A DNA stretch of 64,000 bases from an uncultured delta proteobacterium (GTDB lineage Bacteria > Myxococcota_A > Polyangia > Polyangiales > Houyiibacteriaceae): the NCBI GenBank assembly GCA_963699755.1, contig CAVOVB010000001.1:1024001-1088000 (forward strand), given 5' to 3'. Below the pieces are notes generated by a model. The model ran no database searches, was not told where the DNA came from, and saw only the letters and a list, made by a program, of their open reading frames with translations. Position numbers and translations under genes: made by a program. Positions 12,952 to 63,362 of this stretch are shown in pieces (the stretch's first letter is position 1; every line of letters starts with the position of its first letter).

Positions 12952-12961
12952 GGGACCACCC

Positions 12962-18143: not shown

Positions 18144-18623
18144 CTACATGCCAGCGTCGACCTCAACTACCGATTCCAGGGCTTCCGGATTGACGCCCGG
18201 GTCCAGGGCCACGCAGATTTTAGATTCGGCCCTGGTGCGATTGAGGTCGACGATGCGGGCAACCCGCTCGTCCAAAGGGAGGCTGGGATCGTACTTGCCA
18301 TCTCGCGTGATGCCGCTCGGGAAAGCGCAGGAATATTCGCTGCGGCCGCAGTTCGCGTTGCTGCCGCAGGTCTTCATGCACCAGGTTTCCGCGGTGCGGC
18401 TCGGGATGAACCGCCACTCGACGCAGGCCCCTTCCGGACAGGTGTCAGGGTCACAAGCAAAGATTGTGCAGTAGCCGCCAGGCTGAGAAAGGTCGCACTG
18501 CCGCTCGCCTGTGACCGAGCAATCGGTGGAATTGCCGCAGCCATCGCCAATGTGCATTTTACACCCGCTCAGCGCAAGCAGCGCAACAAAGGCCGACAAT
18601 AGGATCGTCGCGGCTCGCATCAT
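18144..18623 (-). CDS. Cys-rich lipoprotein, hypothetical
   Basis: Signal peptide with lipobox LSGC, followed by 12 further Cys including GGYC. This is the C-terminal part of track ORF 18144..20369. Confidence 0.8.
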   Translation of the reverse strand: MMRAATILLSAFVALLALSGCKMHIGDGCGNSTDCSVTGERQCDLSQPGGYCTIFACDPDTCPEGACVEWRFIPSRTAETWCMKTCGSNANCGRSEYSCAFPSGITRDGKYDPSLPLDERVARIVDLNRTRAESKICVALDPGVNPEALESVVEVDAGM

Positions 18624-18704
18624 TCGCGGCGGAGCATACGGGACCGGCACCGTGATCGCCAATCGCTCTGCGTCGGCGTCAATGGGTGTTAGATTCCCCA
18701 AAGG

Positions 18705-21706: not shown

Positions 21707-22201
21707 ATGCCGAAGAATTTCGCGATCCGGCAACTGCTGGACTGCTCGGAACAAGAATTCTGGGACCAGATCTTTCGCAGCGAAGATTTCAATCACTACT
21801 TGTACGAGGGCCTAGGCTTCGAGTACGAGCTTCAGGAATGGAATCCGGAAACCGGCTACCGGCGAGCGAGGGTCTGGCCTGCGCAGCAGATGCCGCGAGC
21901 CGTCGCAAGAGTTCTCGGCGATCGCTTCAGCTACATCGAAGAAGGCAAGCTCGACTCATCGACCAGGCGCTACGAGTTCATCGTCATTCCCTCGACCATC
22001 GCCGACAGGATTCGAGTGACCGGGACCGTGAGCATCGAGCCGGTCTCGCCCGAGCAGTGCGAACGCTGCGTGAGACTCGACATCGGCGCGGACGTTCTCG
22101 GCTTCGGCCGCCTCATCGAAACGTACTTCGCCGCTGCGACTCGGGCGCAGTACGCGAAGAACGCGGCGCTGGTCAACGATTATCTAGCAGGGCGGCGTTA
22201 G
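21707..22201 (+). CDS. DUF2505-like (START/SRPBCC-like) protein
   Basis: Size 164 aa and pattern (FW..IF, YIEEG, G.GRLIE) recall DUF2505. Starts 2 bp after the PP2C gene. Confidence 0.6.
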   Translation: MPKNFAIRQLLDCSEQEFWDQIFRSEDFNHYLYEGLGFEYELQEWNPETGYRRARVWPAQQMPRAVARVLGDRFSYIEEGKLDSSTRRYEFIVIPSTIADRIRVTGTVSIEPVSPEQCERCVRLDIGADVLGFGRLIETYFAAATRAQYAKNAALVNDYLAGRR

Positions 22202-23907: not shown

Positions 23908-23955
23908 CGTTCCCACCTTGCCTCCAAAGCAGCCCCGGTGCTACCGAAGAGCCTC

Positions 23956-24909
23956 ATGCACTTCGTCTTCGTCATGGACCCAGTGTCGACCGTCATCGTC
24001 GACGAGGATACCAGCTTCATCCTGATGCTCGAATCACAGGCGCGAGGTCATCGTGTCGACCACTGCTTGGCAAGTGACGTAGGCCTTCGTGGCCGTCGAG
24101 TGGTCGCGCGGGTCCGTAGGGCGACCATGCAGCTCGACGCGAAGGAACCGATCCGATTGGGCAAGGCCGAAGACATCGACTTGGTGGATGTCGATGCGGT
24201 ATTCGTCCGAAAGGACCCGCCATTCACCGATGCGTACCTCTGGCTGACGCTCGTGCTCGATCACCTGGAGGGCAGCACCCTGGTGGTCAATGACCCAAGA
24301 GGCCTCCGCGAGGCCAACGAGAAGCTCTATGCCCACCACTTTCCAGAGATCGTCCCAGCGACGATCATGACGAGTCACAAGGACGAGATCCTTCGATTCC
24401 TGAGTGACATGGGCGGCAAGGCCGTGATCAAACCGATCGATGGTCACGGTGGCGAAGGTGTGTTCCTTCTCAGCAATGGGGACAGCAACCTCAACGCGCT
24501 GATCGAATCGGTGACCCATCTAGGCGCGAGGAATGCGATCGTGCAAGCGTTGATCCCCGAGGTGTACGAAGAGGGGGACAAGCGAATTCTGCTCGTTGAC
24601 GGCGAGATCCTCGGCGTTGTCGGACGTGTCCCGAGCAAAGGCGACCTTCGGAGCAATGTGCACGTTGGAGGGTCTGCGGCGCCGGCCGAGGTCAGTGATG
24701 CGGATCGAGAGATCGTCGAAACGATCGCGCCGCGTCTGCGTTCCGATCGGCTCTTTTTCGTGGGCCTCGATGTGATTGGCGGCAAGCTCATCGAGGTGAA
24801 CGTCACCAGCCCAACGCTCCTTCAGCAGATGTCACGCCTCGTCGGAGAGAACCTTTCCGCGATCGTCATCGATCGGCTCGAAGAGAAGGTCCGCGCCTAC
24901 CCGAGCTGA
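23956..24909 (+). CDS. gshB: glutathione synthetase
   Basis: Motifs FVMDP, RKDPPF, NEKLY, KPIDGHGG, GDKRI, RSN, GLDVIG and EVNVTSPT. Confidence 0.95.
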   Translation: MHFVFVMDPVSTVIVDEDTSFILMLESQARGHRVDHCLASDVGLRGRRVVARVRRATMQLDAKEPIRLGKAEDIDLVDVDAVFVRKDPPFTDAYLWLTLVLDHLEGSTLVVNDPRGLREANEKLYAHHFPEIVPATIMTSHKDEILRFLSDMGGKAVIKPIDGHGGEGVFLLSNGDSNLNALIESVTHLGARNAIVQALIPEVYEEGDKRILLVDGEILGVVGRVPSKGDLRSNVHVGGSAAPAEVSDADREIVETIAPRLRSDRLFFVGLDVIGGKLIEVNVTSPTLLQQMSRLVGENLSAIVIDRLEEKVRAYPS

Positions 24910-25282: not shown

Positions 25283-26215
25283 TCAAAAGGCTTGCACGCC
25301 AATTGCGCCCCAGGAGACCTCGATAGGATGCAGCCCTTCGTCTTTGCAGGCCAGCTCAAACCGGTTCGCAGCAGCCCGGTCGATGAAGAATGCGATGGCG
25401 ACGTCTCCGCCGCCGGCGCCGCAAGGCTTCGCGCTCCCTGAAAATCCGGCTGCAAGCTCGGCAGCACGCCTCAGCCGGGCATCGAGGATGGGGGCGCCAG
25501 CCGACTGCCCCAGCATGCCCATGGTAGCAGCGTAGGAGGCCGCCTCGGCAACGACCGCCGGCGCATTGCCGCTCTCGAAGGCGGATGCGAATCGAGCCGA
25601 GATCTCTGAAAGCCGGTCCATGCACTCGCGATACCGGCGCGGGTCCCTGCGTCGGAGCGCATTCACATGTTTGACGAGCTCGCTGGTTCGTGCGGCGTGC
25701 CCCGTCCAAACGAGGGAAATTTCCAACTCGTCTGGGCACCGAAGGGCATGTGTGTCCACTCGATCGCCGTGCCGCTCGAACCTCAGGAATCCCCCGAAGG
25801 CCGAGGCCGCAACGTCGACGCCACTGCCTTGCGGAGCGATCGAGGAATGACCTTCCAAGGCGCAGGCGAAGACTTGCTGCAAGGTGTCTGGGTGGGTCAG
25901 ATCGTAGCCATGCGACGCGAAGACCGCTGCGGCCGCGCCGACGGCGGCGGCTGCGGATGAGCCCAAGCCGAGCTTGATGCGATCCTGATAGAGGTCGCTG
26001 GCGTGCACGCGCAGCGACCGGCCGACGGGACCGAGCGCAGCTCGCGCAACTGCAAGCGTGGTCTCAACCTCTGGTGGCATCGCCGAGCGATCCTCGATCC
26101 AGGTTACCGTGACGCGCCGATCGACCGCCGCGACGACCGCGGGCGCACCTTCGAGCACTGCGTATTCCCCACAAAGCAGTGCCTTCCCCGGTGCACTCGC
26201 ACCCCTCAGGGTCAC
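25283..26215 (-). CDS. phosphomevalonate kinase (GHMP family)
   Basis: Motifs APGKALLCGEYAVL, KLGLGSSAA, GSGVDVAAS and KPCGAGGGD. In an operon with mvk and mvaD. Confidence 0.85.
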   Translation of the reverse strand: MTLRGASAPGKALLCGEYAVLEGAPAVVAAVDRRVTVTWIEDRSAMPPEVETTLAVARAALGPVGRSLRVHASDLYQDRIKLGLGSSAAAAVGAAAAVFASHGYDLTHPDTLQQVFACALEGHSSIAPQGSGVDVAASAFGGFLRFERHGDRVDTHALRCPDELEISLVWTGHAARTSELVKHVNALRRRDPRRYRECMDRLSEISARFASAFESGNAPAVVAEAASYAATMGMLGQSAGAPILDARLRRAAELAAGFSGSAKPCGAGGGDVAIAFFIDRAAANRFELACKDEGLHPIEVSWGAIGVQAF

Positions 26216-27201
26216 CGATGCACCTCGATACCGGGGCCTGGCTTGGCGACCCAGGTTCGTGTCACGCCCTGAGTTCGGTCGAGCGCCTGACGAACCCGGC
26301 TTGCGTCACTGGCTCCACAAAGCGCCTTCACATGCGGCCCAGCATCCATGGTTGCCCAGACGGAAACCCCGCGTTCTCGAAGTGCGCGCACCGTGGCAAG
26401 CGCAGCTAGTGTCGCTGGCGCCCAGTAGAAGATCGGCGGGTCGGAGGTGATCGCACAGCAGTGAAACGCCAGCGTGCTTCGCTCCATGGCAGCGCCGAGC
26501 GTGTCGAGCTCGCGCTCTTTGATCGCACGTTTGATCGTTCGCGACCATCTGGGGGCCTGATCGAGCCAGGCCTGGTAGTAGGGGGAAGTTTTGCGCGAGC
26601 GTTCCATCCCCTCGGTCGAACCCACCTTCTTTTTGCCAGGCTCGGTCAGCCCAACGACCAACCTGAGGTTCCAGTGCACCGGAGGCGCGATTTGCCTGGC
26701 GGCCAGGTCGACATCGCCATGTCCGCCCGCGGGGAGCTCGACGAAACCTCCATAGATGGAACGCGCGGCAGAGGCGCTCGATGCACGGGCCAAGGCGCTG
26801 AGTTGGCGTGCGTTGAAGGGAATTCCGGCGGCTGCCGACGCAGCGCCCGCAAGCGCCGCGAAGCCGGACGCACTCGATGCAAGCCCTGCGGCAGTTGGAA
26901 AGTGGTTGTGGCTGCTAACGTGCGCCTTCACCGGTAGTCGGGCCTCCCGCCGGACGCGGTTGAGCATGATGGTGACCCGCTCGGCCTCAGCCTCGGTCGC
27001 GCGCCTTCCGTCGAGTCTGACGAGGTCGCTAGAGAGAGAGCGATCGAAGCGGACCCGGGTCTCGGTCACGAGCTGGTCCAGCGTCATCGAGATGCTCGGC
27101 ACGGCCGGAACGTTTCGCCGCACGTCAGCCTTCCCCCAGTACTTGGCGAGCGCGATGTTCGCGCAGGCTCGGGCCCTTGCTTCCATAGGGCGCCCGCTCA
27201 T
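26212..27201 (-). CDS. mvaD: diphosphomevalonate decarboxylase
   Basis: Motifs NIALAKYWGK, PTAAGLASSASGFAAL, RSIYGGF and TMDAGPHVK. Confidence 0.95.
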   Translation of the reverse strand: MSGRPMEARARACANIALAKYWGKADVRRNVPAVPSISMTLDQLVTETRVRFDRSLSSDLVRLDGRRATEAEAERVTIMLNRVRREARLPVKAHVSSHNHFPTAAGLASSASGFAALAGAASAAAGIPFNARQLSALARASSASAARSIYGGFVELPAGGHGDVDLAARQIAPPVHWNLRLVVGLTEPGKKKVGSTEGMERSRKTSPYYQAWLDQAPRWSRTIKRAIKERELDTLGAAMERSTLAFHCCAITSDPPIFYWAPATLAALATVRALRERGVSVWATMDAGPHVKALCGASDASRVRQALDRTQGVTRTWVAKPGPGIEVHR

Positions 27202-28097
27202 GCGCTCACCTCGGCCACGAAGGCATCCTCTCCAAGCACCGCGCCCAAGCGAAGGGCTTCGTCATGCTTCGCCGCCAGCGCGAACATGCAGCCTCCGCCG
27301 CCGGCGCCTGTCATTTTGGCGCCCAATGCTCCGGCGCTTCTCGCGGCCTGACACATCTCTTCGAGCTTGCCGGTGCTGAGCATCAGCGAGCTGAGGATGG
27401 TTTGATTCAAGTCGAGCAATTGCCCAAGCGCGACGTGGTCGCCGGCTTCGATGGCCAGCTTCGCGTTGCGCACCAACACCTCGATGGCTTCGAAGGCCTC
27501 GTTCACGCGTCTGGGCTCGTTCTCGAGTTGGCGTGCGACCGAGGCGACCATCTCCTTGGTGCTAGACGACTCGCCGCTGTAGCCGACCACCAGGTACAGC
27601 GGCTTGTTCGAACGCAACGGCTTGAGCGGATCGCCTCTGCGGTAGAGGGCCACGCCCCCAACTGCCGACATGGCATTGTCTATCCCTGAGGGGTTTCCGT
27701 GGAAGACTTTCTCCCAGGAAAGCGCTGACTCTGCTAGGTCCGTCCGAGTGCGTTTGATACCCAGGGCCTTATCGATCGCGTCGAGCACGGCCACGCCGAT
27801 CGCAGCGGAGCAGCCAAGCCCCGCCCCCGCTGGCAGGTCGACGGCAGCGCTCACCTCGAGCCCTGGACGGTTCGGATAGAGCGAGAGCGCCGCGGCAAAC
27901 GCGCGTTCGAGCGGTTGGCTCCCGCGAGGATCGGGCCTGATCGCCAAGTCCCAGGGTGTGAGGCGCAAGAGATCGCGCTCGGCGGTCTTGGCTTTTGCGG
28001 TAACGCCGCGCTCGATGCCGACGGCGATCGCTGGGTAGCCATGGACGACCGCATGCTCGCCGAGAAGAATGATCTTTCCTCTCCCGAAGCCCATCAA
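27198..28097 (-). CDS. mvk: mevalonate kinase
   Basis: Motifs GKIILLGEHAVVHG, PAGAGLGCSAA, HGNPSGID and KMTGAGGGG. Confidence 0.93.
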   Translation of the reverse strand: MMGFGRGKIILLGEHAVVHGYPAIAVGIERGVTAKAKTAERDLLRLTPWDLAIRPDPRGSQPLERAFAAALSLYPNRPGLEVSAAVDLPAGAGLGCSAAIGVAVLDAIDKALGIKRTRTDLAESALSWEKVFHGNPSGIDNAMSAVGGVALYRRGDPLKPLRSNKPLYLVVGYSGESSSTKEMVASVARQLENEPRRVNEAFEAIEVLVRNAKLAIEAGDHVALGQLLDLNQTILSSLMLSTGKLEEMCQAARSAGALGAKMTGAGGGGCMFALAAKHDEALRLGAVLGEDAFVAEVSA

Positions 28098-29116
28098 TCT
28101 CCCCGGTCCGTGAGCTGCCTCGTGACCTCTCCGAGCATCTCTTTGGCGTCGTCGTCGAACGGGCTTGCGGCTAGTGCGCTTCGGGCTTCATCGGCCAAGA
28201 ACCCAAGCCGTGCTTCGACTTCGGCTCTTGCGCCGTCGAGCACTTCGGCAGCGCTCCGAATCTCGTCATCGCTCGCGTCCGGGTGCCCCCAGACGGCATC
28301 GAGCACGGCGCGCTCCGCGTCGCTCGGTCCTAGCGCTCGAAACGCCGCCACCACCGCGTTGTGCTTGCCGTGCCGGAGATCATCACCGGGCTTTCCGGTT
28401 TCCTGCACGCTTCCGAAGGTGCCGAGCAGATCGTCCCGAAGTTGGAACGCTACGCCAAGCGGCGCGGACCATGCGCGAAGGGCAGCCATGCCCGCTTCGT
28501 CCGCATCGGCGAGGATGCCCCCGAGCTCGGCCGGCCCGCGTGTCGTGTAGCTTCCGGTCTTCAGCTCGTGCATGCGCTCGACGTTCCCGTCGGTCATGAG
28601 GTCGAGCTGCTGCCCAGCGAAGACTTCCTTCTGGATCTTCACGAAGAGCGCCAAGCCTTCGTCCCGACGCCCCTGCGGAAAGCTGGCCTTGAGGAAGAGC
28701 TCCCATCCGAAGGTCGAAGCCAGATCCCCCGCGAGGATACCCAGGCTCGCCCCAAGGTGCTCGTGACCATGTCTCCGCTGAAATGCATAGTGGACCGCAA
28801 GCCCGCCACGGCGTTCACAGTCCTCGTCCATCCAATCATCGTGAATCAGCAGATAGGTCTGCAGCAGCTCTAGCGCCGCCCCCACCTCGAATGTCGCGCC
28901 GAGGTCACTCGATCCGCTCGCAGCCCGGTAGGCCGCGGCCGTTACGATCGGGCGAAGCCGCTTTCCGCCACGCATCGTGAGGTCTCTAACCTCGGCGACG
29001 AGCTCGATCGCCAAGGGCGAAAGCGCCGATGCTTCCTCGCACTTCTGGTCGAAAAAGCGTTCAAGGACGGCGTCGATGCGCTGTCGGATGCCCGCCATCC
29101 AAGACTCCAGATCCAT
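28094..29116 (-). CDS. short-chain polyprenyl (FPP/GGPP) synthase
   Basis: GGKRLRP, FARM DDWMD with Tyr at position -5, RRG, GQQLD, KT and FQLRDDLLG. ATG 29116 chosen. Confidence 0.92.
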   Translation of the reverse strand: MDLESWMAGIRQRIDAVLERFFDQKCEEASALSPLAIELVAEVRDLTMRGGKRLRPIVTAAAYRAASGSSDLGATFEVGAALELLQTYLLIHDDWMDEDCERRGGLAVHYAFQRRHGHEHLGASLGILAGDLASTFGWELFLKASFPQGRRDEGLALFVKIQKEVFAGQQLDLMTDGNVERMHELKTGSYTTRGPAELGGILADADEAGMAALRAWSAPLGVAFQLRDDLLGTFGSVQETGKPGDDLRHGKHNAVVAAFRALGPSDAERAVLDAVWGHPDASDDEIRSAAEVLDGARAEVEARLGFLADEARSALAASPFDDDAKEMLGEVTRQLTDRGD

Positions 29117-29192
29117 TTGCCCTTGCGCCACGGTGTCAGTGTCCCTATCCCGAGCTACGTACACGGCGGGACGCTCCCTAGCAAGCAATGCG

Positions 29193-30233
29193 ATGAGCAC
29201 AGACATCGAGCAGAGAAAGGCGGATCATCTCGATCTGTGCGCGACCGATGAGGTCGCGTTCCGGCAGCGTACGACTCTCCTCGAATGCGTACGGCTCGTG
29301 CACCAGTCGCTGCCGGAAGCAAGCTTCGATTCGATCGACACGCGCGTTCGCTTGCTTGGCAAAGAGCTTCGTGCCCCGCTCCTAATCGCGGCGATGACGG
29401 GCGGCCACGCGCGTGCCGCCGAGATCAACCAGGCGCTCGCCGCGATCGCCAACGAGCAGGGCTATGCGTTTGGCTTGGGCAGCCAGCGCGCGATGCAGAA
29501 GCGGCCGGAGACTAGCTGGACCTACCAGGTGCGCTCGCGCGCGCCTGACACTCTCATTCTCGGCAATGTCGGGGTAGTTCAGGCGCGCGACCTGCCAACC
29601 GAGACAATCGCCGAAATGCTGGCTGAGGTCGGCGCCGATGCGCTCTGTGTTCACATGAACCCGGCCATGGAGCTGGTTCAGCCCGGTGGCGATCGTGACT
29701 TCAGCAGAGGCCTCGAGACCTTCCAACGCCTCTGGGCGGAGCTCGGCATGCCCATCATTGCGAAAGAAACGGGCAGCGGACTCAGTCGCGAAGTCGCGAC
29801 CCGTTTGCGCGCCGTCGGCATTCGGTACGCGGATACTTCCGGAGCAGGTGGCACCTCTTGGGTTGGGGTCGAAACCTTGCGTGCCGAGGGGGACGGCCAG
29901 GCGCTGGGCGAAGCGCTCTGGGATTGGGGGATTCCGACTGCCGCATCGGTCCGGTACTGCGTCGAGGCGGGGATGACCACGATCGCAACTGGCGGGATCC
30001 GATCTGGCATGGACGTCGCCCGCGCGATCGCGCTTGGTGCGAGTTGCGCGGGCATCGCGCGAAATGTCTATCAGGCCTTCCTTGAAGGCGGCGCCGACGG
30101 CGCCCGAACGTTCTTGCGGCGTGTGGAGCTCGAGCTTCGTTCCGTCATGCTGCTCTGCGGCGCAAAGACGATCGGAGAGCTACAAGAGGCTCCGCGAGTC
30201 GTGACCGGCGAGCTCTGCGATTGGATCCGCTAG
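29193..30233 (+). CDS. fni: type 2 isopentenyl-diphosphate isomerase (FMN-dependent)
   Basis: Motifs RKADHL, MTGG, GSQR, HMNPAMELVQPGGD, KETG, GAGGTSW and GGIRSG. Confidence 0.95.
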   Translation: MSTDIEQRKADHLDLCATDEVAFRQRTTLLECVRLVHQSLPEASFDSIDTRVRLLGKELRAPLLIAAMTGGHARAAEINQALAAIANEQGYAFGLGSQRAMQKRPETSWTYQVRSRAPDTLILGNVGVVQARDLPTETIAEMLAEVGADALCVHMNPAMELVQPGGDRDFSRGLETFQRLWAELGMPIIAKETGSGLSREVATRLRAVGIRYADTSGAGGTSWVGVETLRAEGDGQALGEALWDWGIPTAASVRYCVEAGMTTIATGGIRSGMDVARAIALGASCAGIARNVYQAFLEGGADGARTFLRRVELELRSVMLLCGAKTIGELQEAPRVVTGELCDWIR

Positions 30234-30259: not shown

Positions 30260-31246
30260 TCAGCTCTCGGTCAGGACCGAGCCCGGGACGGTTTCGCGCT
30301 CTTCGGGCACTGGCTCGTAGCGCAGCAAGTCCTCGACGCGTTCGAGCAGCTCACCTTCGAAGCGCAGCGAAAAGCGAGGTTCGAGCAGCTTCATTCGAAC
30401 ACGCCAAACGACAGGGTCGGCAGGGTCGCGCAAGACGACCGGCGTGGCTCCGGCGAGCACCCAGGGCGAGCTGAGCATCGCGTCTGTGAGTGCCAAGCGC
30501 ACCTTCCCCGCGTCCTCGTACCCTTCGAGGCGTACCACCACTTCGTGCTCCGCATCCGAGCCGGCGTCGTACACCATGGGCGCACCGACCATCGCGCGGT
30601 TGGGCACTGTCAAGCGGTGCCCCTGCCCGTCACGGAGCCAGGTCGCACGGAGCGAACGACCTTCCACAGTCCCCTGAAAGCCGTCGCCCGAAACCCACAT
30701 CCCCTTCTTCACACGGCGCTCGGCGGCCAGGATTAGGCCGGACACCAGGTCGGCGAACAGATCTCGAATCGACCAACCGATGACCAGCGCAAGGACGGCC
30801 AAGGCCCATAGGATCCAGTTCTCGCCAGTTGGGACGAGGTAATGAACGATCGCGAGAAGCAGAGAGAAAGCCGCGAGGCGAAGCGCGAAGACCAGCGCGC
30901 CGAGCATACGCCTAAGAGGAATGCTCTTCGTGGTCCAGCCGCGAGTGCGCTCGGCGATGAGCAGCACCACGCCGACGGCGAGCAACCACAGGAAGAGGAT
31001 CATGAGCGGGTTGCGTTCCTGTGCTCGTGTCGACTCTTCGCTCCGAGCGTCTGCGGCCTGCTCCCTCGCAATCGAGGTCGGAGGCTCCTTTGAGCTGGGT
31101 TCGGCTAGCTTCTCTGCCGGCTCGGCCGGAGCTTCCGACTGTGCTTGGGGCTCCTCCGTCAGGCCCTGAGCTTGCGCGGTCCCTGGCGCCGCAACGAGCG
31201 CGACCAGTAGAAGTGATACGAAGAGTCGTTGAAGCTTCGATGTCAC
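30260..31246 (-). CDS. MscS-family mechanosensitive channel-like protein
   Basis: Signal peptide, acidic linker, three TMs, then RDLFADLVSGL, G.WV…G.V…LRAT.L and VPNR. GTG 31246 overlaps the upstream stop. Confidence 0.85.
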   Translation of the reverse strand: MTSKLQRLFVSLLLVALVAAPGTAQAQGLTEEPQAQSEAPAEPAEKLAEPSSKEPPTSIAREQAADARSEESTRAQERNPLMILFLWLLAVGVVLLIAERTRGWTTKSIPLRRMLGALVFALRLAAFSLLLAIVHYLVPTGENWILWALAVLALVIGWSIRDLFADLVSGLILAAERRVKKGMWVSGDGFQGTVEGRSLRATWLRDGQGHRLTVPNRAMVGAPMVYDAGSDAEHEVVVRLEGYEDAGKVRLALTDAMLSSPWVLAGATPVVLRDPADPVVWRVRMKLLEPRFSLRFEGELLERVEDLLRYEPVPEERETVPGSVLTES

Positions 31247-34200
31247 AGCACCCAACCCCGCTCTGCAAAGACGCGACCCAACACCCCTCGTAGATGCACC
31301 GCGATCACGAACGCACCCTCTCGCTCGTCGAGCAAGCCTAGGTGGGCCAAGCGACTGAGCTGCGCCTGTGCCGTGTTGACGTCGAGCCTGAAGAGCCTTC
31401 CTTGGCCGGCCGCGTCCATCCAGCCTTGGCGGGCGATTTGGTAGAGGTTGACCAAGACGTCGTCCGGGAGCCGTCTCACCCGAGTGTACAAGGACGCGGG
31501 GATCGGTCCGACATGGACGATGTCGTCCTGTATTCCTCGAATCGAAGCCAACCACAGCCGAAGCGCATCGCGGACGAGGCCGCCGGTCGCCTCGTGCAAC
31601 TCATGGAAGTACTGGTCGTAGGGCCTTCGAATCCTGGTGGCGCTCCTGGCGAACAGGCCCTCGATCCGCGAGCCTTCTCCCCGGTCGAAGGAGTGCTCGA
31701 AACCGCTCAAGCGATGCCTGGCGATGACTGCGGCCTGCAACTCCTCTTCACTCAGGGGATCGAGTCGAACCACCTCGGGGAACGCGTCCCGCAGAGGCGC
31801 AACGGTGGAGGCAAAGTTCCAGAAGAGCACCGCGCCATGCGCCAGCCAACGTCGCCGTCCGCCCTCTTCGATGATTCCCTTCACGAAGCGTCGCAGTGGG
31901 CCGAAGCCACCGGGAGCCATCGACAGCATCCAGTGGAGGCCGTCGACGACGACCAACTGGCCTTCCGGCGCATCTTGAAAAATCGCGTCGACATCTTCGA
32001 CCTGCACAGGTGCGCTGAAGACCACGCGCTTCACGTTCTTCCAGCGGCGGCTCCGCACGATTGCGCTCGAGACGGCTGCCTTTCCAACGCCGTCGACGCC
32101 CACCAGCGCGACCGAGCGCAATCGACCTTTGACTTCACTCGAAAGCACGGCCTCCCCTCGGCGGATCTCCTGGTCGCGGCCGGTGAGCACGTCGCCGGCC
32201 TCCATCGTATCTGCGGCGAAGAGGCGCCGGTAGACCAGAGGCAGATTGGTCGCCACCTCGGGAGCTGCAAAGGTTCCCGCGGAGAGCTCCTCGGTTGGTA
32301 CGGCTCTGGTAAGGCCGAGACGCTCACTCCAGCGCTCGAGGCGCTCCTCGCCGAACAAGGCTCGAAGGCCGCCGCGGAGTTGTGCCTTGAATCGCTTTAC
32401 CCGGGGCTCGCGCTCGACCTTCTTCATGATCCGAAGTCCGCTGGCGGCGCGCCGCATCGCTTCGAGGCGTGACCTGCTGAAAGACCCTTCCGCAAGCTCG
32501 CCGCGCAGCGTTTCGAGCGTACCGAGCGCCGCGTCATGCATCTCGCGTTCGATGATCTCCGGCCAGCCCTTCGCTTCGGCGCGAATCTCCTCGAGGGAGT
32601 TGTAGTTTCGCTCGAGCTGGCCATAGACCATTTCGCGAAGCAGCGTGTGCATCTCTTCGGGAATCGACTCGTCGTGGACGATTTCGAGCTCGGCGGTTGC
32701 TAGCTCCACATTGAACGCAACGACGCGCTCGAGCTCCTGAAGCAGGTTGGCCAAAGGCTGAACGCGGTCCGCCAGGTCCTGACGGCTTGCGAGTAGCTTC
32801 GGGGCCACGCGGCTGTCGATATAGGTGAGGACCACCTCTCGGAATGGCACTTCAACCTCGGGTAGTGCGGTCGGCAAGCGCCACTCGCCTGTCTGACGCT
32901 GCCCTACGGTCACTCGGTAGCGCGGCGTGAGCGCTCGGCAGGCGTCCACCAGGGTATCGAGCAGAGGGGCGATTTTCGTCTCGTCGCTCAGGTCTTGGTA
33001 GAGCTCGGCAGTGACGCGGGCGGCTTCGCCGGTGGCCTTGCTCGTCGGCTCGGTCGCCTTTCGTAGCGCGGCAGCCAGCTCTTCGCCGGAGTAGTCGCTC
33101 TCGAGCTCTGCGTTCAGCACCGACAGAGCGCTTTGGAGGGTATCGCTCACGCGCTCTACTTGAGATGTCGCTCGTCGCTTCACCGTGTTGGTGAGCCTGA
33201 GAACGTATTCGGCGACGTTGTCCTTGATTCGCGCTTCTAGGCCGAGAAGCTCGAGCTCCATGGCCAGCGTCGAATACTCTGCCGAGCTTGCCTTTCGAAG
33301 GTTCGAGACGTCTTTGGTGAGCGTCTCCATTGCCCGCATGCGGTTCGCGAAGCGGCGGCTCGTGCGTCGCTCGCCAGTGCGAAGGTCGAGGGTTCCAAAG
33401 ATCGGCAAGTCCTCTTTCATCCTGACAAAACCCGTCGCCAGGGCGCTCGCAGCACGATGGGTACCGTCGCCGGTGATGCGCACCGTTTCATCGAGCGCGA
33501 GAGCCAGCTCTTCTTCGACGTCGTGCCTCAGACGAACCAACTGCCCTTCGAGGTCGGCATCCGGATCAGCGGAGATGTCGACGATGTCGTCGTAGCCCGC
33601 GATCACACCGTCAAAGAGACTTCGTGTGCGAGCCGCGAGGTGCCGATCGGCTTCGACGAAGAGCGCGGCCAGGGCCTCGAGCCGAGCAGGCGCATCATAC
33701 GAGAGATGGAAGCGACCAAGGGCGCGTAGCCGGACATCGCGAGTCGGCGGAGTTTGCCCTAGGGCTCTGCGCCAGCCCCGCCTCAGCCGCAGCATGCCCC
33801 GGCGGAGCCGCTTCCAAATCGAATCATCATCTTTGGTCTGGTAGGTGACGTCTTCGAACGGCGCCGTGACGACCGACGGAAGCTCGTCGACCAGACCGTC
33901 GACGTTTTCGAGCATGCCTTCGGGCGTCCAGGTGAGCTTGGCGAGCGTAACCGACCGGCCGAGGACGATCCCCCGCCAGTGCGCCGCCAGGTCAGATTGA
34001 GCGGAGCGCAATAGCGTCACCAGCTCGTCCCGTTCCGCGCCGTCTTCAGCGCGAGCCTGAACGGTCAAGCGCCGATGATGGCGTAAGAACTCACGTCGAA
34101 GGTCCCGCAAATACTTCCCCGCGTCGAGCTGGAACTCTCGAAGGGGGCCGGTCGATACTTCACGCACGAGACTCTGCAGATCACCGCCGAGGTCCTGAAC

Positions 34201-35760
34201 ACGACTATTGAGCTTCGCGCTCTTCGTCTCCAGAGGATCGCCCCATAGGTTCTTCGCGCCAACGTGCTCGGGCCAGGGCTCTAGTTGTTTGGATGCTCCG
34301 TCCTCGCCGGCTGGTCGCATCGAAGGCGGCCTGACCGACAAATGCCTCGTCGGGGTGAGCGACTTTCGGCTGACGCTGGTTTCACCAGCGAGACTGAGGC
34401 CGAGCTTGAAGATGACGGGGCCCAGCAGCTCGTTGATCGCAACTCCGCCGATGAGCAAAGTTTCGAGCGAGCGCCCGAGCTCGCCAAACTCCCTACCGAT
34501 GATGGCGGCCAGCAAGATCGACACGCCGGCCTGGGAAACGAAACCCATCCAGCCGAAGGCTCGAGTCCCATCGTCCGCTTTGCCAATCCGGGCGCCGATC
34601 TTCGTTCCAGAGAACAGCGCAAACGCGCGGACCGAGACGATGGCCAACGCGAAGAGGGCGACCTGTTGCAATTCCTCGAGATGGAGCTTGGCGCCGGCGA
34701 GCGTGAAGAATACGACGTAGACAGGCAAGGAGAGGCGCTCGACCGTTTCGATCAGCCGGTGTCCCGTCTTCGAGAAATTTGAAACCCCAAAGCCTGCCGC
34801 GAGGAAGACGAGCACGGTGTCCCAGCCGAGCTGATTGGCAATGAAGGAGACTAGGTACACGACGCCCACGACGAAAATCAGAAGCTCCTGATTCACGTAG
34901 CGGATGTAGAGCGCCATCAGTCCGCCCACGACCACCGCTCCGAAGAGGATCGAGATGACGATGTGCTGGAGCAGGTAAGCGGCAATTCCGCCTTCCAACG
35001 CGCCCATACCGACTTGCTGCGCGACCACGACCTGTGCAATCGCGAAAGCGACGACGACGACGACGTCCTTGAGAACGACTGCGGACAGAACGTTCCGTGT
35101 CATCGGACCAACAGCCTTGGACTCCATGATCACGGCGATCGTGGCCGCCGGGGAGGTTGCCAGGGATACGGATGCGACCATGGCGCCTACGGCGAGCGCC
35201 GCCGCCGTCGGCAGCCCTGCAAGGCCAGGCAGGCCGATGTAGGGCACCGCACCCGAGATCAGCCAAAAGAACGCCGTCACCAGGACGCCAATTGATACGA
35301 TTTGTGCGGCGATGATCGAGCTGATCGCGCGGAGCCCCTTCCTAAGGCCTTCGAGCTTGAGCTCGCCGCCGGCGGTGAGCGCGATCAGCGCGACGGCGAG
35401 CGTGTCGAACAAGCTCAGCTGCTCGATCACCTCATCGTTGAGAATGCCTTTGTCGAAGGGTGCTGGAAGACCGAATCCATTCAGAACCTTCGCCAGTGAT
35501 GGACCAAAGACCAGGCCGGCGATCAAATATCCGGTGATGTGAGGCAGCCGGATTTGACCGACGAGCCCGCCGATGGTGTAGCTCGCCAGAACGACGAATC
35601 CGAATGCGAGCATCCCACTTGGGTCGAAGGGATGCTGGGCGAACTGCTCGAACTGATAGAGCGCCACCATCCCAAACAAGAGCAGCACGATGACGGTGAT
35701 CTGCCGCCGCGCGTGCGTCTCTTCGCCAGGGGGAGGGATGCTGTACGCGCCCGTCATCAC
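31243..35760 (-). CDS. 1505-aa fusion: CPA2 cation:proton antiporter + long helical region + degenerate P-loop NTPase + probable winged helix
   Basis: N-terminal motifs LPHITGYLIAGLVFGP, ATSPAATIAVI, FFTLAGAKL and SQAGV. C-terminal LTGRDQE, GVDGVGKA and LVVVDG. Confidence 0.85.
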   Translation of the reverse strand: MMTGAYSIPPPGEETHARRQITVIVLLLFGMVALYQFEQFAQHPFDPSGMLAFGFVVLASYTIGGLVGQIRLPHITGYLIAGLVFGPSLAKVLNGFGLPAPFDKGILNDEVIEQLSLFDTLAVALIALTAGGELKLEGLRKGLRAISSIIAAQIVSIGVLVTAFFWLISGAVPYIGLPGLAGLPTAAALAVGAMVASVSLATSPAATIAVIMESKAVGPMTRNVLSAVVLKDVVVVVAFAIAQVVVAQQVGMGALEGGIAAYLLQHIVISILFGAVVVGGLMALYIRYVNQELLIFVVGVVYLVSFIANQLGWDTVLVFLAAGFGVSNFSKTGHRLIETVERLSLPVYVVFFTLAGAKLHLEELQQVALFALAIVSVRAFALFSGTKIGARIGKADDGTRAFGWMGFVSQAGVSILLAAIIGREFGELGRSLETLLIGGVAINELLGPVIFKLGLSLAGETSVSRKSLTPTRHLSVRPPSMRPAGEDGASKQLEPWPEHVGAKNLWGDPLETKSAKLNSRVQDLGGDLQSLVREVSTGPLREFQLDAGKYLRDLRREFLRHHRRLTVQARAEDGAERDELVTLLRSAQSDLAAHWRGIVLGRSVTLAKLTWTPEGMLENVDGLVDELPSVVTAPFEDVTYQTKDDDSIWKRLRRGMLRLRRGWRRALGQTPPTRDVRLRALGRFHLSYDAPARLEALAALFVEADRHLAARTRSLFDGVIAGYDDIVDISADPDADLEGQLVRLRHDVEEELALALDETVRITGDGTHRAASALATGFVRMKEDLPIFGTLDLRTGERRTSRRFANRMRAMETLTKDVSNLRKASSAEYSTLAMELELLGLEARIKDNVAEYVLRLTNTVKRRATSQVERVSDTLQSALSVLNAELESDYSGEELAAALRKATEPTSKATGEAARVTAELYQDLSDETKIAPLLDTLVDACRALTPRYRVTVGQRQTGEWRLPTALPEVEVPFREVVLTYIDSRVAPKLLASRQDLADRVQPLANLLQELERVVAFNVELATAELEIVHDESIPEEMHTLLREMVYGQLERNYNSLEEIRAEAKGWPEIIEREMHDAALGTLETLRGELAEGSFSRSRLEAMRRAASGLRIMKKVEREPRVKRFKAQLRGGLRALFGEERLERWSERLGLTRAVPTEELSAGTFAAPEVATNLPLVYRRLFAADTMEAGDVLTGRDQEIRRGEAVLSSEVKGRLRSVALVGVDGVGKAAVSSAIVRSRRWKNVKRVVFSAPVQVEDVDAIFQDAPEGQLVVVDGLHWMLSMAPGGFGPLRRFVKGIIEEGGRRRWLAHGAVLFWNFASTVAPLRDAFPEVVRLDPLSEEELQAAVIARHRLSGFEHSFDRGEGSRIEGLFARSATRIRRPYDQYFHELHEATGGLVRDALRLWLASIRGIQDDIVHVGPIPASLYTRVRRLPDDVLVNLYQIARQGWMDAAGQGRLFRLDVNTAQAQLSRLAHLGLLDEREGAFVIAVHLRGVLGRVFAERGWVL

Positions 35761-37247
35761 CGCCTCCAGAACGCTGGGAGCATGAGCGCGAAGAGCGTGA
35801 AGAACTCGAGTCGTCCGAGAAGCATGGCCATCGAGAAGAAGAACTTGCTACCAGGCGAGTAAGCGGCGAAGTTGTCCGGCCCCACGTGGAAGGGTGCGGG
35901 GCCCATGTTCGACAGGCAAGTCAGCATCGCCCCAAAAGCCGTGGGCGCGGGAACGCCTTCGACCAGGGTCACGAAGATCAGGCCGAAACCGATGCATCCC
36001 ATGTAGATCAGAAAGAAGGACGCGACGTCGGAGAGAACCTGGTTGCTGATCGCGACTTTCCCCATGCGAACCAGCTGCACGCTGGCCGGGCGGAAGCTCT
36101 TTTGGATTTGAGCGATCGCCTGCTTGCCCATCAAGACCGCTCGCTCGACCTTGATGCCGCCGGCCGTCGAACCGGAGCATCCGCCGACGAACATGATGAG
36201 GATCAAGATCGTCAGCGCCGTCGAGCTGTAGGCGCTGTAGTCGTCGGTACCATAGCCCGTGGAGGAGATCGTGGTCGCCACCATGAAGAAGGAGTAGCGA
36301 AAGGAGGTTAGGAGCTCTTCATGCACGCTCAGGTTGAGGATCGTCAGGAAGATGACCGCCGTCACGACGATTGCGAGGTACCAGCGAAACTCGATGTTAC
36401 GGAGCAGCGACCTCCAGTTGCCGGTTCGCAACAGGCCATAGTAGAGCCCGTAGTTCACGCTGCCGATCAGCATGAAGCAGGCGATCACGTACTCGACGGC
36501 GGCGCTGTGGAAGCCGCCTACCGAGCTGTCGAGGGTCGAAAAGCCGCCCGTCGACATGGTCGTGAACGCATGGCAGACCGCGTCGAAGAGGTCGAGGCCC
36601 AAGATCTTGAGAAGCGCGATCTCGATGATGGTGAGGGCGCCGTAGAGCTTCCACAGCGCAAATGACGTCTCGGCGATTCGCGGCCGCAAACCCTCCGCCG
36701 TGGTTCCAGGCACCTCTCCACGAAACAGATGTTTGCCACCTGCGCCGAGGTTCGGGAAGACCGCGACGAACAAGACGACGATGCCCATGCCGCCTAGCCA
36801 TTGAATCAGCGAACGCCAGAGCAGAAGTGGCCGCGACAAGCGCCCCTCGATGTCGGAGATCACCGTTGCGCCGGTAGTCGTCAGGCCGCTGACCGCTTCG
36901 AAAAATGAATCGGAGGCCGACATTCCTGCTCCGAGAACGAACGGAACTGCACCGCAGACCCCAGCCGCGACCCAGATCAAGCTCACCGCGAGCAAGGCCT
37001 CGCGCCGCGATATCCGCTCGGAGACGAAGCGATTCCCATAGAGAAACGCCGTCAGTCCTAGAATTGAGACGATGATTGCCGAGAGCGCCATCGCCGCCGC
37101 GCCGCCTTGCGGTCGGCTTGGGTCTGGCGCGAATTGGTCCCAAAGCATGCCGACACCAGCGCAGAGGGCGATCATCACGCCGATCCCGAGCACGACGGCT
37201 CCGACGGGTCGGATCACGCCACGAAAGTCTCTCGATTGCGTGCTCAC
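35757..37247 (-). CDS. trkH: Trk potassium uptake membrane protein
   Basis: Selectivity-filter motifs TTTGAT, STGGFS, STGYG and SNMGP, plus QWLGGMG and GSTAGGIK. Confidence 0.95.
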   Translation of the reverse strand: MSTQSRDFRGVIRPVGAVVLGIGVMIALCAGVGMLWDQFAPDPSRPQGGAAAMALSAIIVSILGLTAFLYGNRFVSERISRREALLAVSLIWVAAGVCGAVPFVLGAGMSASDSFFEAVSGLTTTGATVISDIEGRLSRPLLLWRSLIQWLGGMGIVVLFVAVFPNLGAGGKHLFRGEVPGTTAEGLRPRIAETSFALWKLYGALTIIEIALLKILGLDLFDAVCHAFTTMSTGGFSTLDSSVGGFHSAAVEYVIACFMLIGSVNYGLYYGLLRTGNWRSLLRNIEFRWYLAIVVTAVIFLTILNLSVHEELLTSFRYSFFMVATTISSTGYGTDDYSAYSSTALTILILIMFVGGCSGSTAGGIKVERAVLMGKQAIAQIQKSFRPASVQLVRMGKVAISNQVLSDVASFFLIYMGCIGFGLIFVTLVEGVPAPTAFGAMLTCLSNMGPAPFHVGPDNFAAYSPGSKFFFSMAMLLGRLEFFTLFALMLPAFWRR

Positions 37248-38584
37248 TCACCCCTCGGCCGGAAGAGACGCTCGACGGTTGCCCGCGCGTCCCTGGTGGT
37301 CATCAGGATCACCCGGTCCCCCGGATGCACGACGTCCTTTCCGTGTGGAATGATCACCTCGTCGCCGTGTACGATTGCCGCCAGCAGCGAGCCGCGGGGC
37401 AGATTCATACGGTGCAAGGGCTTGTTCACCGCGCGGCACTTCGCGCTTGCGGTGAGTTCCACGACCTCCGCTTGGCCGTCCTCGAGCACCGTCAAGCCGT
37501 GAAGGCCCCCACCTCGTGAGAAGCGAAGGATCTGGTCGGAGGCCACGGTGCGCGGCGACAGAACGATGTCGATGCCGAGCTGTCGATATATCGACGCGTA
37601 GTCCGCGCGCTGCACGATCGTGGCGGTTCGCTTGCAGCCTGCACGCTGCGCGAGAAGCGCCGCCATGAGGTTGATCTCGTCCTGCTTGGTGACGGCGGCG
37701 AACAAGTCATAAGTACCGACCTCCTCCTCGTCGAGGAGCGCCCCGTCGGTACCATCGCCATGCACGACCTGGACCCCTTGGAATTCCCCGCTGATCTCTT
37801 CTGCCACCTCGAGATCGCTTTCGATCATCATGATCGTGGCCTGTTGCTGCAGGAGGTCGCGCGCGAGCGCCTTGCCGACCACACCGCCACCAACGATACA
37901 GACTCTGCGTGCTTCGCGTTCCTTGCTGAAGAGTCGCTCGGCGGCGAGTACGCCCTCGGGCCGGCCGATCAGATACACGCGGTCCCCTTTGACCAAGACG
38001 TCGGCGCCGCCAGGGACGAAGAGCTCTCCCTCACGAACCACCGCGCTGACCAGCGTATGTGGTGGCAGCTCGACGGACGAAAGCGGCTTGTTCAGCATTC
38101 GGGATTCGTCGAGGTCGATCTGTACGAGCTCGACTCGATCCTGGGCGAGGTCGATGACGTCCGAGGCGCCGTAAGAGCGAGCGATGCGGCTGAGCTCCTG
38201 TGCGACGAGCACGCGAGGATTGATCACGACGTCGACGCCGAGCAAGCCGTAGCGGATTCCTTCCGTCCATTCGGACCAGGCCGTCCCCTGGACGCGAGCC
38301 ACCACGTGCTTTGCGCCGAGCTGCTTCGCGGCCAGAGCGGCGATCAGATTCATTTCGTCGTGGTCGGTTACCGAAACCACTAGGTCTGCTCGGCCCACGC
38401 CAGCGATCTTCAGCAGGGTTTCGCTCGCGCCGTAGCCGATGATGGAGGCGACATCGTAGTGCTCTTCGGCGTATTGCACCGCCTTGGGGTTCGAATCGAC
38501 AGCGATGATGTCGTGGCCTTCCTTGTCGAGCACGCTCAACAAGTGACGACCCACCTCGCCCAAGCCTATGATGACGATGTTCAA
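37244..38584 (-). CDS. trkA: Trk potassium uptake NAD-binding subunit (two RCK modules)
   Basis: GLGEVG and GGGVVG Rossmann motifs in tandem RCK_N/RCK_C repeats. TTG start overlaps the upstream stop. Confidence 0.93.
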   Translation of the reverse strand: MNIVIIGLGEVGRHLLSVLDKEGHDIIAVDSNPKAVQYAEEHYDVASIIGYGASETLLKIAGVGRADLVVSVTDHDEMNLIAALAAKQLGAKHVVARVQGTAWSEWTEGIRYGLLGVDVVINPRVLVAQELSRIARSYGASDVIDLAQDRVELVQIDLDESRMLNKPLSSVELPPHTLVSAVVREGELFVPGGADVLVKGDRVYLIGRPEGVLAAERLFSKEREARRVCIVGGGVVGKALARDLLQQQATIMMIESDLEVAEEISGEFQGVQVVHGDGTDGALLDEEEVGTYDLFAAVTKQDEINLMAALLAQRAGCKRTATIVQRADYASIYRQLGIDIVLSPRTVASDQILRFSRGGGLHGLTVLEDGQAEVVELTASAKCRAVNKPLHRMNLPRGSLLAAIVHGDEVIIPHGKDVVHPGDRVILMTTRDARATVERLFRPRGE

Positions 38585-39921
38585 GTGGCACCCATCTCAA
38601 TCGTTGTTGGGGAATCGCTATCCTTGAGCTCGCGCTGGATTTCACCTTCATCGGCGAGCAAGCCGCGGAGCAGTCGTGGCCCGACCAGGTCGTTGATGAT
38701 GACCGAGCCCAGCACCACGGAATACGCGACGTTCGCCGCCTCGCCTTGGTAGACGAGGCGAAACGAGACCGCCATCGCCAGCGTGACGTCGCCATGCGCC
38801 AAGAGCCCCCGAAACAGATCTTTGCGCAATGTCGTCCCCCAACCTGCAATCACGCTTGCGATCCACTTCGCGCCCGTGCGGGCGGCGAGGAATCCCGAGA
38901 GCGCGACTAGGGTAGGCGCTAGGGGAGTCGGCTGCCAGAGCGCGCCGGCGAAGACGAGCAGCACAATCGCCATCGGACGTTCGGTCGACTCGAGCGTCGT
39001 GTGCAAGAGCTGGCCGCCTCGCGCGAAATTCACGAGAACGAAGCCCATCGAAAGGTTGACCGCCAAGGGCGACAGCTCGAGGAAGTAGGCGCCGCCTGAA
39101 GCGAAAGCGATGATGCCGACGAGCGCCAGGAAGCGCGAGTTGTCCGATTCGTCGCCAGCCAGGAAGAGCGAAAACAGGAAGCCGAGCGCAGCGCCCAGCA
39201 AGACCGTGACCCAGGCCCAGAGCGAGGGGGAATAGTCCTGCGCTTGAGGCGCATTCTCGTGGAATACGCAGAAGATCAGACCAAAGGCCAATATCACGGC
39301 GATGTCCCCGAGCCGCGTTCCGTTGCGCAGGAGGGAAGTGAGCCTTCCGCTGATCTCGTAGCGTCTAGCCAGAAGGTCGAACGGCTCGGTCGAATCGGCA
39401 GCGGCGAAGCAGGCAAGGGCCGCCGCGCTCAGTGCTGCATCGCGCCGCGTCGTCACGAGCCAGCCGGCCTCGGTGAAGAAGTAGTAGGCACCGAACCCGA
39501 CCGCCAGGCCGGGCAGAAGGTGATGCAGGAAGACTACTCGCCAGGTTGCCGGGTCGAGCTTCTGAAGGCTGGTGAAGTCGAAGTCCGTGCCTCGCAGAAG
39601 TCCGACCCAGCCCGCCGCGAGGGCGATGATGGGAAGCAGACCCGTCAGATTGTCGAACGCGTGAATCGCCGGAAAGGCTGGGCCGAGCAGGAAGCCGAGA
39701 AGGAGGTACTCTGCGCCACTCACGACGAGGAAGCGCCGTTGCAAACGCTCGACGACGTTGTGGGCGAGTACGTACGCAACTCCGATCACGACGACGAGCA
39801 CGACCACCGTGCCAAGCTCGCCCGCGCTACCCTTCGCAGCGGCTCCGCTCGCCGCGTACGCAGCGCTAGGCAGCGCCGCCCAGACGAGCACCACTGCGGT
39901 CAAGATCAGGCTCCCCGCCAT
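38581..39921 (-). CDS. cation:proton antiporter-like membrane protein (CPA superfamily, divergent)
   Basis: About 12-13 TM helices with motifs YLLLGFLLGP, LELSPL, ERP…LLVFAGA and GLLAHG. Confidence 0.75.
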   Translation of the reverse strand: MAGSLILTAVVLVWAALPSAAYAASGAAAKGSAGELGTVVVLVVVIGVAYVLAHNVVERLQRRFLVVSGAEYLLLGFLLGPAFPAIHAFDNLTGLLPIIALAAGWVGLLRGTDFDFTSLQKLDPATWRVVFLHHLLPGLAVGFGAYYFFTEAGWLVTTRRDAALSAAALACFAAADSTEPFDLLARRYEISGRLTSLLRNGTRLGDIAVILAFGLIFCVFHENAPQAQDYSPSLWAWVTVLLGAALGFLFSLFLAGDESDNSRFLALVGIIAFASGGAYFLELSPLAVNLSMGFVLVNFARGGQLLHTTLESTERPMAIVLLVFAGALWQPTPLAPTLVALSGFLAARTGAKWIASVIAGWGTTLRKDLFRGLLAHGDVTLAMAVSFRLVYQGEAANVAYSVVLGSVIINDLVGPRLLRGLLADEGEIQRELKDSDSPTTIEMGAT

Positions 39922-39997: not shown

Positions 39998-40663
39998 CTA
40001 ACCCCGCAGCCCATCGAGCACGATCGCGATCAAGCTCCTGCTTGTTTCGATCGGGTCCAACTGGACCTGTTTCCGCACGGAGGCCAAAGCGAGCGCCTCC
40101 ACGGCTCCGAGAACCGCCAGCGCGCTCACACGAGGGTCGGAGACCGACACGAAGTCTCGGTCTGCGGCGATCTGGCTCAGGGTCATGGCCTTTTCGTCGA
40201 GATCGTTCGCCAGATCGGAGATCGCCTGCCGTGCCACCGTCGCCGGCGCCCGGCGCTCCTGGAGATAAAGGCACATCGCATCCGGATACATGGCAAGCGC
40301 CCCAACCAATCGATTGCCGAGCTGACCGTATGCCGCGACCGCCTCGTCGCGACCATTCGCCTTGCGGAGTTGCTCCTCGCATGCGTCGATCGCCTCATGC
40401 GTGGTAGTGGCGACCGGGGTGATGACCGCTTCGACGAGATCTGATTTGTCTCGAAAATAGCGGTAGAAATTGCCCTTGGCCATGCCGGCTTCGCGGGCGA
40501 CGTCATCGATCGTCACCGCTTCGATCCCGCGTTCCAGAAAGAGCGAGAGCCCAGCGTCGATCAGGTCCTGGACTCGTTTCCGTCGGTTGAGATCTCGCTT
40601 GCCACCAAATGCGCCGGGTCTTTCAACGGGGCCGGCGCGCCTTGGCCTTCTCTCGTCGTCCAT
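39998..40663 (-). CDS. TetR/AcrR family transcriptional regulator
   Basis: HTH motif LFLERGIEAVTIDDVAREAGMAKGNFYRYFRDKSDL. Confidence 0.93.
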   Translation of the reverse strand: MDDERRPRRAGPVERPGAFGGKRDLNRRKRVQDLIDAGLSLFLERGIEAVTIDDVAREAGMAKGNFYRYFRDKSDLVEAVITPVATTTHEAIDACEEQLRKANGRDEAVAAYGQLGNRLVGALAMYPDAMCLYLQERRAPATVARQAISDLANDLDEKAMTLSQIAADRDFVSVSDPRVSALAVLGAVEALALASVRKQVQLDPIETSRSLIAIVLDGLRG

Positions 40664-63340: not shown

Positions 63341-63362
63341 TCGGCTCCGGACGCTCAGCGCT

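Follow-up and report, generated by a model that had tools for sequence, protein, structure and literature searches.

The DNA analyzed here (the window) is a stretch of 64,000 nucleotides from an uncultured delta proteobacterium of the Polyangiales (GCA_963699755.1, contig CAVOVB010000001.1, positions 1,024,001 to 1,088,000), in which the fourth gene of a five-gene operon encodes a fusion of an antiporter membrane domain, a long helical arm, and a C-terminal module made up of an AAA+-fold domain, a helical lid, and a winged helix. Comparative genomics indicates that the constant partner of this module is not the antiporter but the gene for an MscS-like channel. We propose that the module may be a hydrolysis-dead accessory subunit that ties a dedicated MscS-like channel to transporters of K+ and other ions, a reading to which we give about an even chance. 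The conserved architecture and gene pairing appear to be categorically new, the function being predicted, and no published description of the family was found in the literature searched, subscription journals and supplementary tables lying outside its coverage.

Loci were chosen from search matches, blind to their neighbors, and an MscS-like gene lies no more than 2.6 kb downstream of the module in 39 of 41 loci and in 19 of 20 further loci (58 of 61). This pairing, together with the existence of the module without an antiporter, moved the emphasis from the antiporter to the channel. The partner channel has a signal-like N terminus, a linker, three transmembrane (TM) helices, and cytoplasmic cage domains. 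Its TM3 pore helix, beta-domain (PF00924), and alpha/beta domain place it in the MscS family, and it aligns to MscK residues 905 to 1079. A possible contact with this protein was a side remark in the earlier note; the gene pairing has made it the strongest link of all, while physical contact is something that we infer.

The reverse relationship was examined in 81 genomes of the class with a module profile, scored on 22 candidates per genome, and a profile of the neighboring channel. The module profile gave 35 matches in 24 genomes, and 34 of these modules have an adjacent channel gene; the remaining one runs off the end of a contig. Among the 48 channel matches listed, 31 of the 32 scoring at least 113 bits directly follow a module, as do none of the 16 lower ones. 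No channel match of at least 113 bits occurs in the 57 module-negative genomes, where four reach 97 to 104 bits. The genome under study (G000) has 22 MscS matches, of which the top three (232, 218, and 209 bits) adjoin its three module genes and the rest score at most 85.5 bits. So many open frames matching the MscS profile are unusual for one genome; two of the 22 have identical scores although they lie on different contigs, and the listed contamination of the genome is 9%.

The module occurs in four forms, each observed with the channel gene: fused to the antiporter, soluble, fused to a cation-chloride-type permease, and preceded by four to five TM helices. The soluble form, of ∼1000 amino acids (aa), has 15 representatives, and its context is known at two loci (L071 and L081); at L071, the channel gene is kept and both the antiporter and Trk are absent. 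A quick tree places the 15 soluble rows among antiporter-fused rows with decayed motifs, which suggests that the soluble forms have lost the antiporter and retained the channel. The channel gene is likewise kept with the permease fusions (L092, intact at 1734 aa, and L065). In the fourth form, a signal peptide, a coiled coil, and the four to five TM helices stand ahead of the module; plasmid pLA3 of Novosphingobium pentaromativorans carries such a module and its channel (WP_007014233.1 and WP_039857743.1); in this cultured alphaproteobacterium, the pair consists of two genes and the Walker A motif is intact. In one protein (P0260), a single frame runs from the antiporter through the arm and module into the channel, which is present from about TM2, the winged helix being joined on the expected cytoplasmic side. 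The genome under study has two more module copies, both of the four-to-five-TM class. One (G000:C1:1913635-1918231, locus L098) has an intact Walker A (GKTT) and is followed by a partner-type channel, with two more MscS-like genes within 5 kb; the other (G000:C2:59536-62849) is in pieces, through a broken gene or an assembly error, and the partner-type channel behind it is still open.

The P-loop fold claimed for the C-terminal region by the earlier note is borne out by a confident model (pLDDT 93) with an AAA+ core, lid, and winged helix and with likeness to RuvB and Orc1/Cdc6; an ASCE alpha/beta core followed by a helical lid identifies it as AAA+. Motif conservation was tallied in three sets: 109 near relatives (the proteins of at least 1400 aa among the best 120 of 203 matches to a search with aa 480 to 1505), 59 diverse antiporter-fused relatives, and 76 rows of a module alignment. 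The suspected impairment of hydrolysis also held, as both Walker motifs are decayed in this gene and in its relatives. Walker A ends in GKA here and in 99 near relatives, the others having GKG (5), GKS (4), or GKV (1), and GK[ST] is kept in only 6 of the 59 diverse relatives, none of which has a DE Walker B. The Walker A Lys itself is kept in 26 of the 59 and lost in 33. Walker B reads VVVDG here, 48 of the 59 have Gly in the second position, and DD is retained in most of the four-to-five-TM and cation-chloride forms. An active AAA+ ATPase was rejected on the absence of both Walker A GK[ST] and Walker B hhhhD[ED], and the best explanation is that the module in this clade is unable to hydrolyze ATP. 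In the lid motif TGGLVR the Gly is invariant, and Pro two places on occurs in 13 of 76 rows, all of a distant branch. The winged helix matches that of EutK (3i71; E value of 2.6e-7), and the chain ends ∼5 residues past the last helix.

The helical middle region that had been predicted is likewise present in a model of aa 490 to 1505 (pLDDT 91.2, pTM 0.65, 81 sequences), which has long helices over aa 515 to 1090 and two small beta-hairpin inserts. Its halves match each other weakly (HHalign probability of 26 to 50%, E values of 1.6e-4 to 7e-4), and the arm may be an old internal duplication. It has no Pfam match and no usable Atlas match and hence no family name, and its profile also retrieves the distant antiporter-fused branch (E values of 4e-53 to 1e-3). 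Among the 18-residue windows scored over alignment A2, residues 652 to 669 rank first in both mean net charge (+5.0) and hydrophobic moment (0.55) and are a candidate membrane-surface anchor.

The membrane domain scores above the gathering score of the NhaA-fold family PF00999, with profile matches to NHE1/6/9, SOS1, 5bz2, and 4czb. In the eight-position cation-proton antiporter (CPA) motif scheme given in the available part of PMC6181914, it has ATSP at positions 1 to 4, no Glu5, Lys6, Asp7, and Arg8. The absence of Glu5 from both candidate columns, in all 59 diverse relatives and all 32 loci, agrees with the CPA2-type assignment first made for it. The ion-binding acid (Asp232) is retained, as is Arg378 at position 8. 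Position 7 is Asp in 35 of the 59, Glu in 13, Asn in 10, and a gap in 1; position 6 is Lys in 30, Glu in 2, and Asp in none; Arg8 is found in 58; and ATSP is found in most relatives. LKD is kept in 101 of the 109 near relatives. Lys6 covaries with a conserved TM3 Glu (Glu133), found in 25 of 30 relatives with Lys6 versus 12 of 29 without it, counts in which kin are not independent, and this Glu could neutralize Lys6. Three named classes were rejected: CPA1, which combines Glu5 with Arg8, for want of Glu5, although Arg8 is present; electrogenic CPA2 (NhaA and NapA, with Asp6 and Lys8) on Lys6 and Arg8; and Kef-type CPA2 on the lack of a C-terminal KTN/RCK domain and on ATSP in place of LSST, which is associated with K+ selectivity. 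Pfam TrkA_N and TrkA_C have no match in the fusion, whereas the neighboring TrkA matches strongly.

The first gene of the operon is a full-length paralogue of the fused antiporter domain (HHalign probability of 99.8% over 392 columns). Such a paralogue precedes the fusion in 25 of 31 antiporter-fused loci (of the other six, one is at a contig end) and in 10 of 10 of a second sample (35 of 41), and in 0 of 20 loci with other N termini, for some of which the upstream DNA is short. Two of the 31 loci lack a Pfam antiporter match and were assigned by alignment. The genome under study also holds a tailless tandem pair of both antiporter types (G000:C1:362315-365142; L073:5337-8146), the first gene without a Pfam match, which indicates that the two-subunit antiporter is an older unit than the fused form. 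The fused domain and the paralogue likely form a heterodimer and would represent an antiporter type that is encoded by two genes and has a Lys-Asp/Arg site. At L047, L051, and L053, the antiporter domain is strongly diverged and the DNA fetched also lacks the upstream paralogue; at L055, the domain is diverged but the paralogue is kept. The order of the operon is antiporter-like gene, trkA, trkH, fusion, and MscS-like gene, with overlapping stops and starts; the trkH stop overlaps the start of the fusion, whose own stop overlaps the start of the MscS-like gene, most likely at 31246. The Trk genes are optional: trkH is upstream of antiporter-fused loci in 23 of 31 cases in the first sample and 2 of 10 in the second, and trkAH occurs in 25 of 41 such loci and in none of the 20 with other N termini. 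Where trkAH is lacking, the paralogue usually abuts the fusion.

The 1505 open codons are present and all motifs lie where the earlier note had placed them, and the concern that the fusion was an assembly artefact is met by >100 full-length relatives and by contigs from public runs that bridge both domain junctions. Contigs, rather than raw reads, of four public runs were compared with the gene, and none was listed with an insertion or deletion inside it. In run X1, one contig spans the antiporter/arm junction (33066 to 35089) with nine differences and no gap, and another (31425 to 32790) covers the arm/ATPase junction; a contig of run X2 likewise bridges the antiporter/arm junction. X1 is probably another strain, given its differences, and its two single-contig joints with short sides probably derive from other organisms; X2 may be the source sample of this DNA. 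The public runs in which this sequence is best represented are sediment metagenomes. A scan of 401 genomes of the phylum gave a match in 135, with E values of 3e-62 or better in 54, and the fusion was present in all 18 of the other genomes scanned from the genus. A library of 50% clusters holds 1151 proteins at E values of ≤0.001, and the near relatives are named Polyangiales, Myxococcales, and Sandaracinus. The antiporter fusion is stable across two deep branches of the quick tree. In one 1817-aa relative (P0281), carboxypeptidase-regulatory-like beta domains are inserted within the antiporter domain.

We predict the following. The AAA+/lid/winged-helix module would be a cytoplasmic accessory subunit of the MscS-like channel encoded by the next gene, to which its N-terminal fusion partner (antiporter plus arm, cation-chloride transporter, four-to-five-TM block with outer coiled coil, or arm alone) would be brought. 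The antiporter domain and upstream paralogue would form a heterodimeric, probably electroneutral cation/H+ exchanger. The operon would join K+ uptake by TrkAH, cation/H+ exchange, and osmolyte release, a content that suggests turgor control. The module would serve as a scaffold or an allosteric coupler, and any nucleotide bound to it would have no more than a structural role. According to the available text of PMC13503660, the cytoplasmic cage of MscM can serve as a gate, which offers a possible route by which the module might regulate the partner channel. If this is true, a dedicated channel partner, fused to two unrelated ion-transporter folds, wires osmolyte release to ion transport by protein contacts. 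MscS is the textbook example of gating by lipid force alone.

Several points weigh against this proposal. All support for contact between module and channel is genomic. Kin are not independent in the pairing counts, the 113-bit cut was set after the list had been seen, and the sequences behind the channel profile were those of partner genes, with rows from 3 of the 22 positive genomes. The channel is missing from 3 of 61 loci (L035, L059, and L085), and the partner-type channel at L100 is not preceded by a module over the 1.7 kb of upstream DNA available. P0260 is known from one sequence on one contig, and two further apparent module-channel fusions (P0150 and P0226) look frameshifted. In their textbook stoichiometries, such an antiporter is dimeric and such a channel heptameric, which gives no simple match. 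Because all 109 nearest full-length relatives keep the Walker A Lys, nucleotide binding may matter more here than a purely structural role would imply. Finally, MscS and MscL are activated without the need for an accessory protein according to the available part of a 2026 review (PMC13591265), and an accessory subunit would be a departure from this.

A bolder version of the accessory-subunit proposal, which we regard as speculative and doubtful, envisages a whole MscS subfamily in which an obligate cytoplasmic AAA+/winged-helix subunit encircles the cage of the channel and operates the side windows, which would thereby become a second gate. Where the motifs are intact, the mechanosensitive channel would be under ATP control; here, a dead ATPase with a 600-residue helical lever, anchored on the membrane by the basic amphipathic helix, would couple the channel mechanically to a heterodimeric antiporter with an unusual Lys-Asp site in a supercomplex coordinating K+ uptake, exchange, and release.

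The earlier note had read the module as a nucleotide-sensing switch of its own antiporter, in place of the Kef RCK/KTN domain. In a fuller form of this reading, binding of ADP or ATP would move the arm and gate transport, and the channel would be a coregulated neighbor. The covalent fusion has persisted stably in both of two deep branches, and the invariance of the Walker A Lys among the nearest relatives, HLRG in 107 of 109 of them, and the position of the AAA+ core and lid as the best-conserved parts of the chain (0.83 to 0.84, versus 0.76 for the antiporter, in the 109 near relatives) favor nucleotide sensing. The available part of PMC6468293 reports that a winged-helix His of the STAND protein PH0952 touches the phosphates of ADP, and His1489 (His in 54 of 76 rows) appears from secondary structure to be similarly placed. 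Nevertheless, the module exists without the antiporter and the antiporter pair without the tail, the Walker A Lys is lost in the majority of diverse antiporter-fused relatives, and a one-to-one channel subfamily would be left unexplained. The switch is therefore not well supported, and we consider it unlikely.

Alternatively, module and channel could belong to one osmotic-response pathway and be coinherited for matched expression with no contact, the tail being a scaffold for transporters (the antiporter pair and TrkAH) or for an unseen partner. What the sequence directly shows is only translational coupling, through overlapping stop and start codons, and operon neighbors need not bind each other. 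Against this, the pairing outlasts exchange of all other operon genes, paralogues within one genome each retain a channel gene of their own, and one in-frame fusion is known; we judge this explanation improbable.

A third explanation, an anti-phage system in which a STAND-like sensor opens the channel or drives ion loss upon infection and arrests the cell, is very unlikely. The order of nucleotide-binding domain, lid, and winged helix is that of STAND proteins, 11 of 76 rows match nSTAND1, and presence is patchy (24 of 81 genomes); genomes carry several paralogues, and one copy is broken here. There is also a precedent for defense by a membrane P-loop NTPase in Tmn, which acts by ion export (PMC13001434, available part). 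However, PADLOC gave no match for the fusion, channel, or upstream antiporter and only weak AAA-type matches in 2 of 7 proteins, every other genome of the genus has the fusion in a fixed operon with TrkAH, no defense families occur among the neighbors scanned, and no sensor repeats follow the winged helix. Least probable is a membrane-tethered regulator whose winged helix binds DNA, as in Orc1/Cdc6, RuvB, and MarR, and controls the operon: the best fold matches are DNA-binding AAA+/winged-helix proteins and MarR_2 matches 5 of 76 rows, but the winged helix carries little positive charge (mean net charge of +1.3, range of −6 to +7), the exposed positions of its putative recognition helix are variable with only core residues fixed, and the channel pairing would be unexplained.

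Features of the operon in the window and the evidence for their assignment
Feature	Position	Strand	Evidence
Fusion gene, 1504-1505 aa: CPA2-type antiporter domain, helical arm, AAA+-fold pseudo-ATPase, lid, winged helix	31243..35760	-	
Antiporter membrane domain, aa 20-462	34375..35703	-	Pfam PF00999, E 5.9e-23; alignment to NHE1, NHE6, SOS1
VVLKD, aa 228-232 (motif position 6, Lys; position 7, ion-binding Asp)	35065..35079	-	
Helical arm, aa 515-1090	32491..34218	-	Predicted model
Basic amphipathic helix, aa 652-669, candidate membrane-surface anchor	33754..33807	-	Charge and hydrophobic moment
AAA+-fold nucleotide-binding domain, ∼aa 1171-1350	31711..32250	-	
Walker A, GVDGVGKA	32077..32100	-	
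Walker B, LVVVDG	31939..31956	-	
Helical lid with TGGLVR, ∼aa 1351-1425	31486..31710	-	
Winged helix, ∼aa 1426-1505, protein C terminus; His1489 opens last helix	31246..31485	-	
Partner-type MscS-like channel, 328 aa	30260..31246	-	PF00924, E 2.1e-11
TrkH potassium-uptake channel subunit	35757..37247	-	PF02386, E 4.4e-50; NCBIfam TrkH, E 6.6e-92
TrkA (RCK) gating subunit	37244..38584	-	NCBIfam TrkA, 432 bits, above its cutoff
Upstream antiporter paralogue, 446 aa, without Pfam antiporter match; candidate heterodimer partner	38581..39921	-	HHalign

A TetR-family regulator (39998 to 40663) lies upstream of the operon, and tblastn found no match to it within 6.5 kb upstream in 41 related loci. 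On the other side, a mevalonate-pathway cluster on the minus strand (25283 to 30233) has three GHMP-family genes and a polyprenyl synthase and faces an FMN-dependent gene, likely a type 2 isopentenyl diphosphate isomerase. Divergent genes for gamma-glutamyltranspeptidase and glutathione synthetase (22198 to 24909) lie ∼5 kb from the operon; Kef exchangers are glutathione gated. Farther away, a DNA polymerase III alpha-like gene follows an IMS-family gene (7742 to 12975), an arrangement like that of an imuB-dnaE2 mutagenesis cassette, and a 759-aa protein (13076 to 15355) has HEAT repeats and matches a TLC nucleotide transporter. Two minus-strand open reading frames, of 741 aa (18144 to 20369, overlapping a 704-aa plus-strand frame) and 356 aa (62348 to 63418), have no Pfam match at an E value of 1e-5.

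Among known systems, RuvB and the Orc1/Cdc6 initiators, which bind DNA through winged helix and ISM, share the AAA+ core, lid, and winged helix, but the module lacks the Walker A S/T and the Walker B Glu, is fused to membrane transporters and linked to a channel gene, and gives no sign of a DNA-binding surface in an indirect check of charge and conservation. STAND NTPases (MalT, PH0952, archaeal SSO1545/Paby2304, and Avs5) have a nucleotide-binding domain and helical domain fused to a winged helix, as described in the available part of PMC6468293, and the module shares this feature; it is also found in Orc1/Cdc6 and RuvB and so does not single out STAND, for which the module fold scores no better than for other AAA+ proteins. 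The module ends at the winged helix, without the arm or repeat sensor typical of most STAND members, and has GLV in place of GxP; a full STAND protein was rejected on the absence from the clade of GxP and of an arm or sensor after the winged helix. The trkA and trkH genes of the operon are ordinary members of their families, but they are optional in antiporter-fused loci. Escherichia coli MscK (E value of 1.3e-10) and MscM (1.5e-8) are the best sequence matches of the partner channel; they carry extra parts in the channel's own chain, with no AAA+ module among them, and the N-terminal block of the four-to-five-TM relatives has no sequence match to either. KefC and KefB resemble the fusion in combining a CPA2-type membrane domain lacking Glu5 with a C-terminal cytoplasmic module, and many relatives carry the JGI label “KefB.” Unlike the Kef-like pattern of LSST, a polar residue at position 6, and Lys8 given in the available part of PMC6181914, the fusion has ATSP, Lys6, Asp7, and Arg8, and in place of an RCK domain it bears a tail of 1040 aa, comprising the helical arm and the AAA+/winged-helix module, with an antiporter paralogue encoded upstream.

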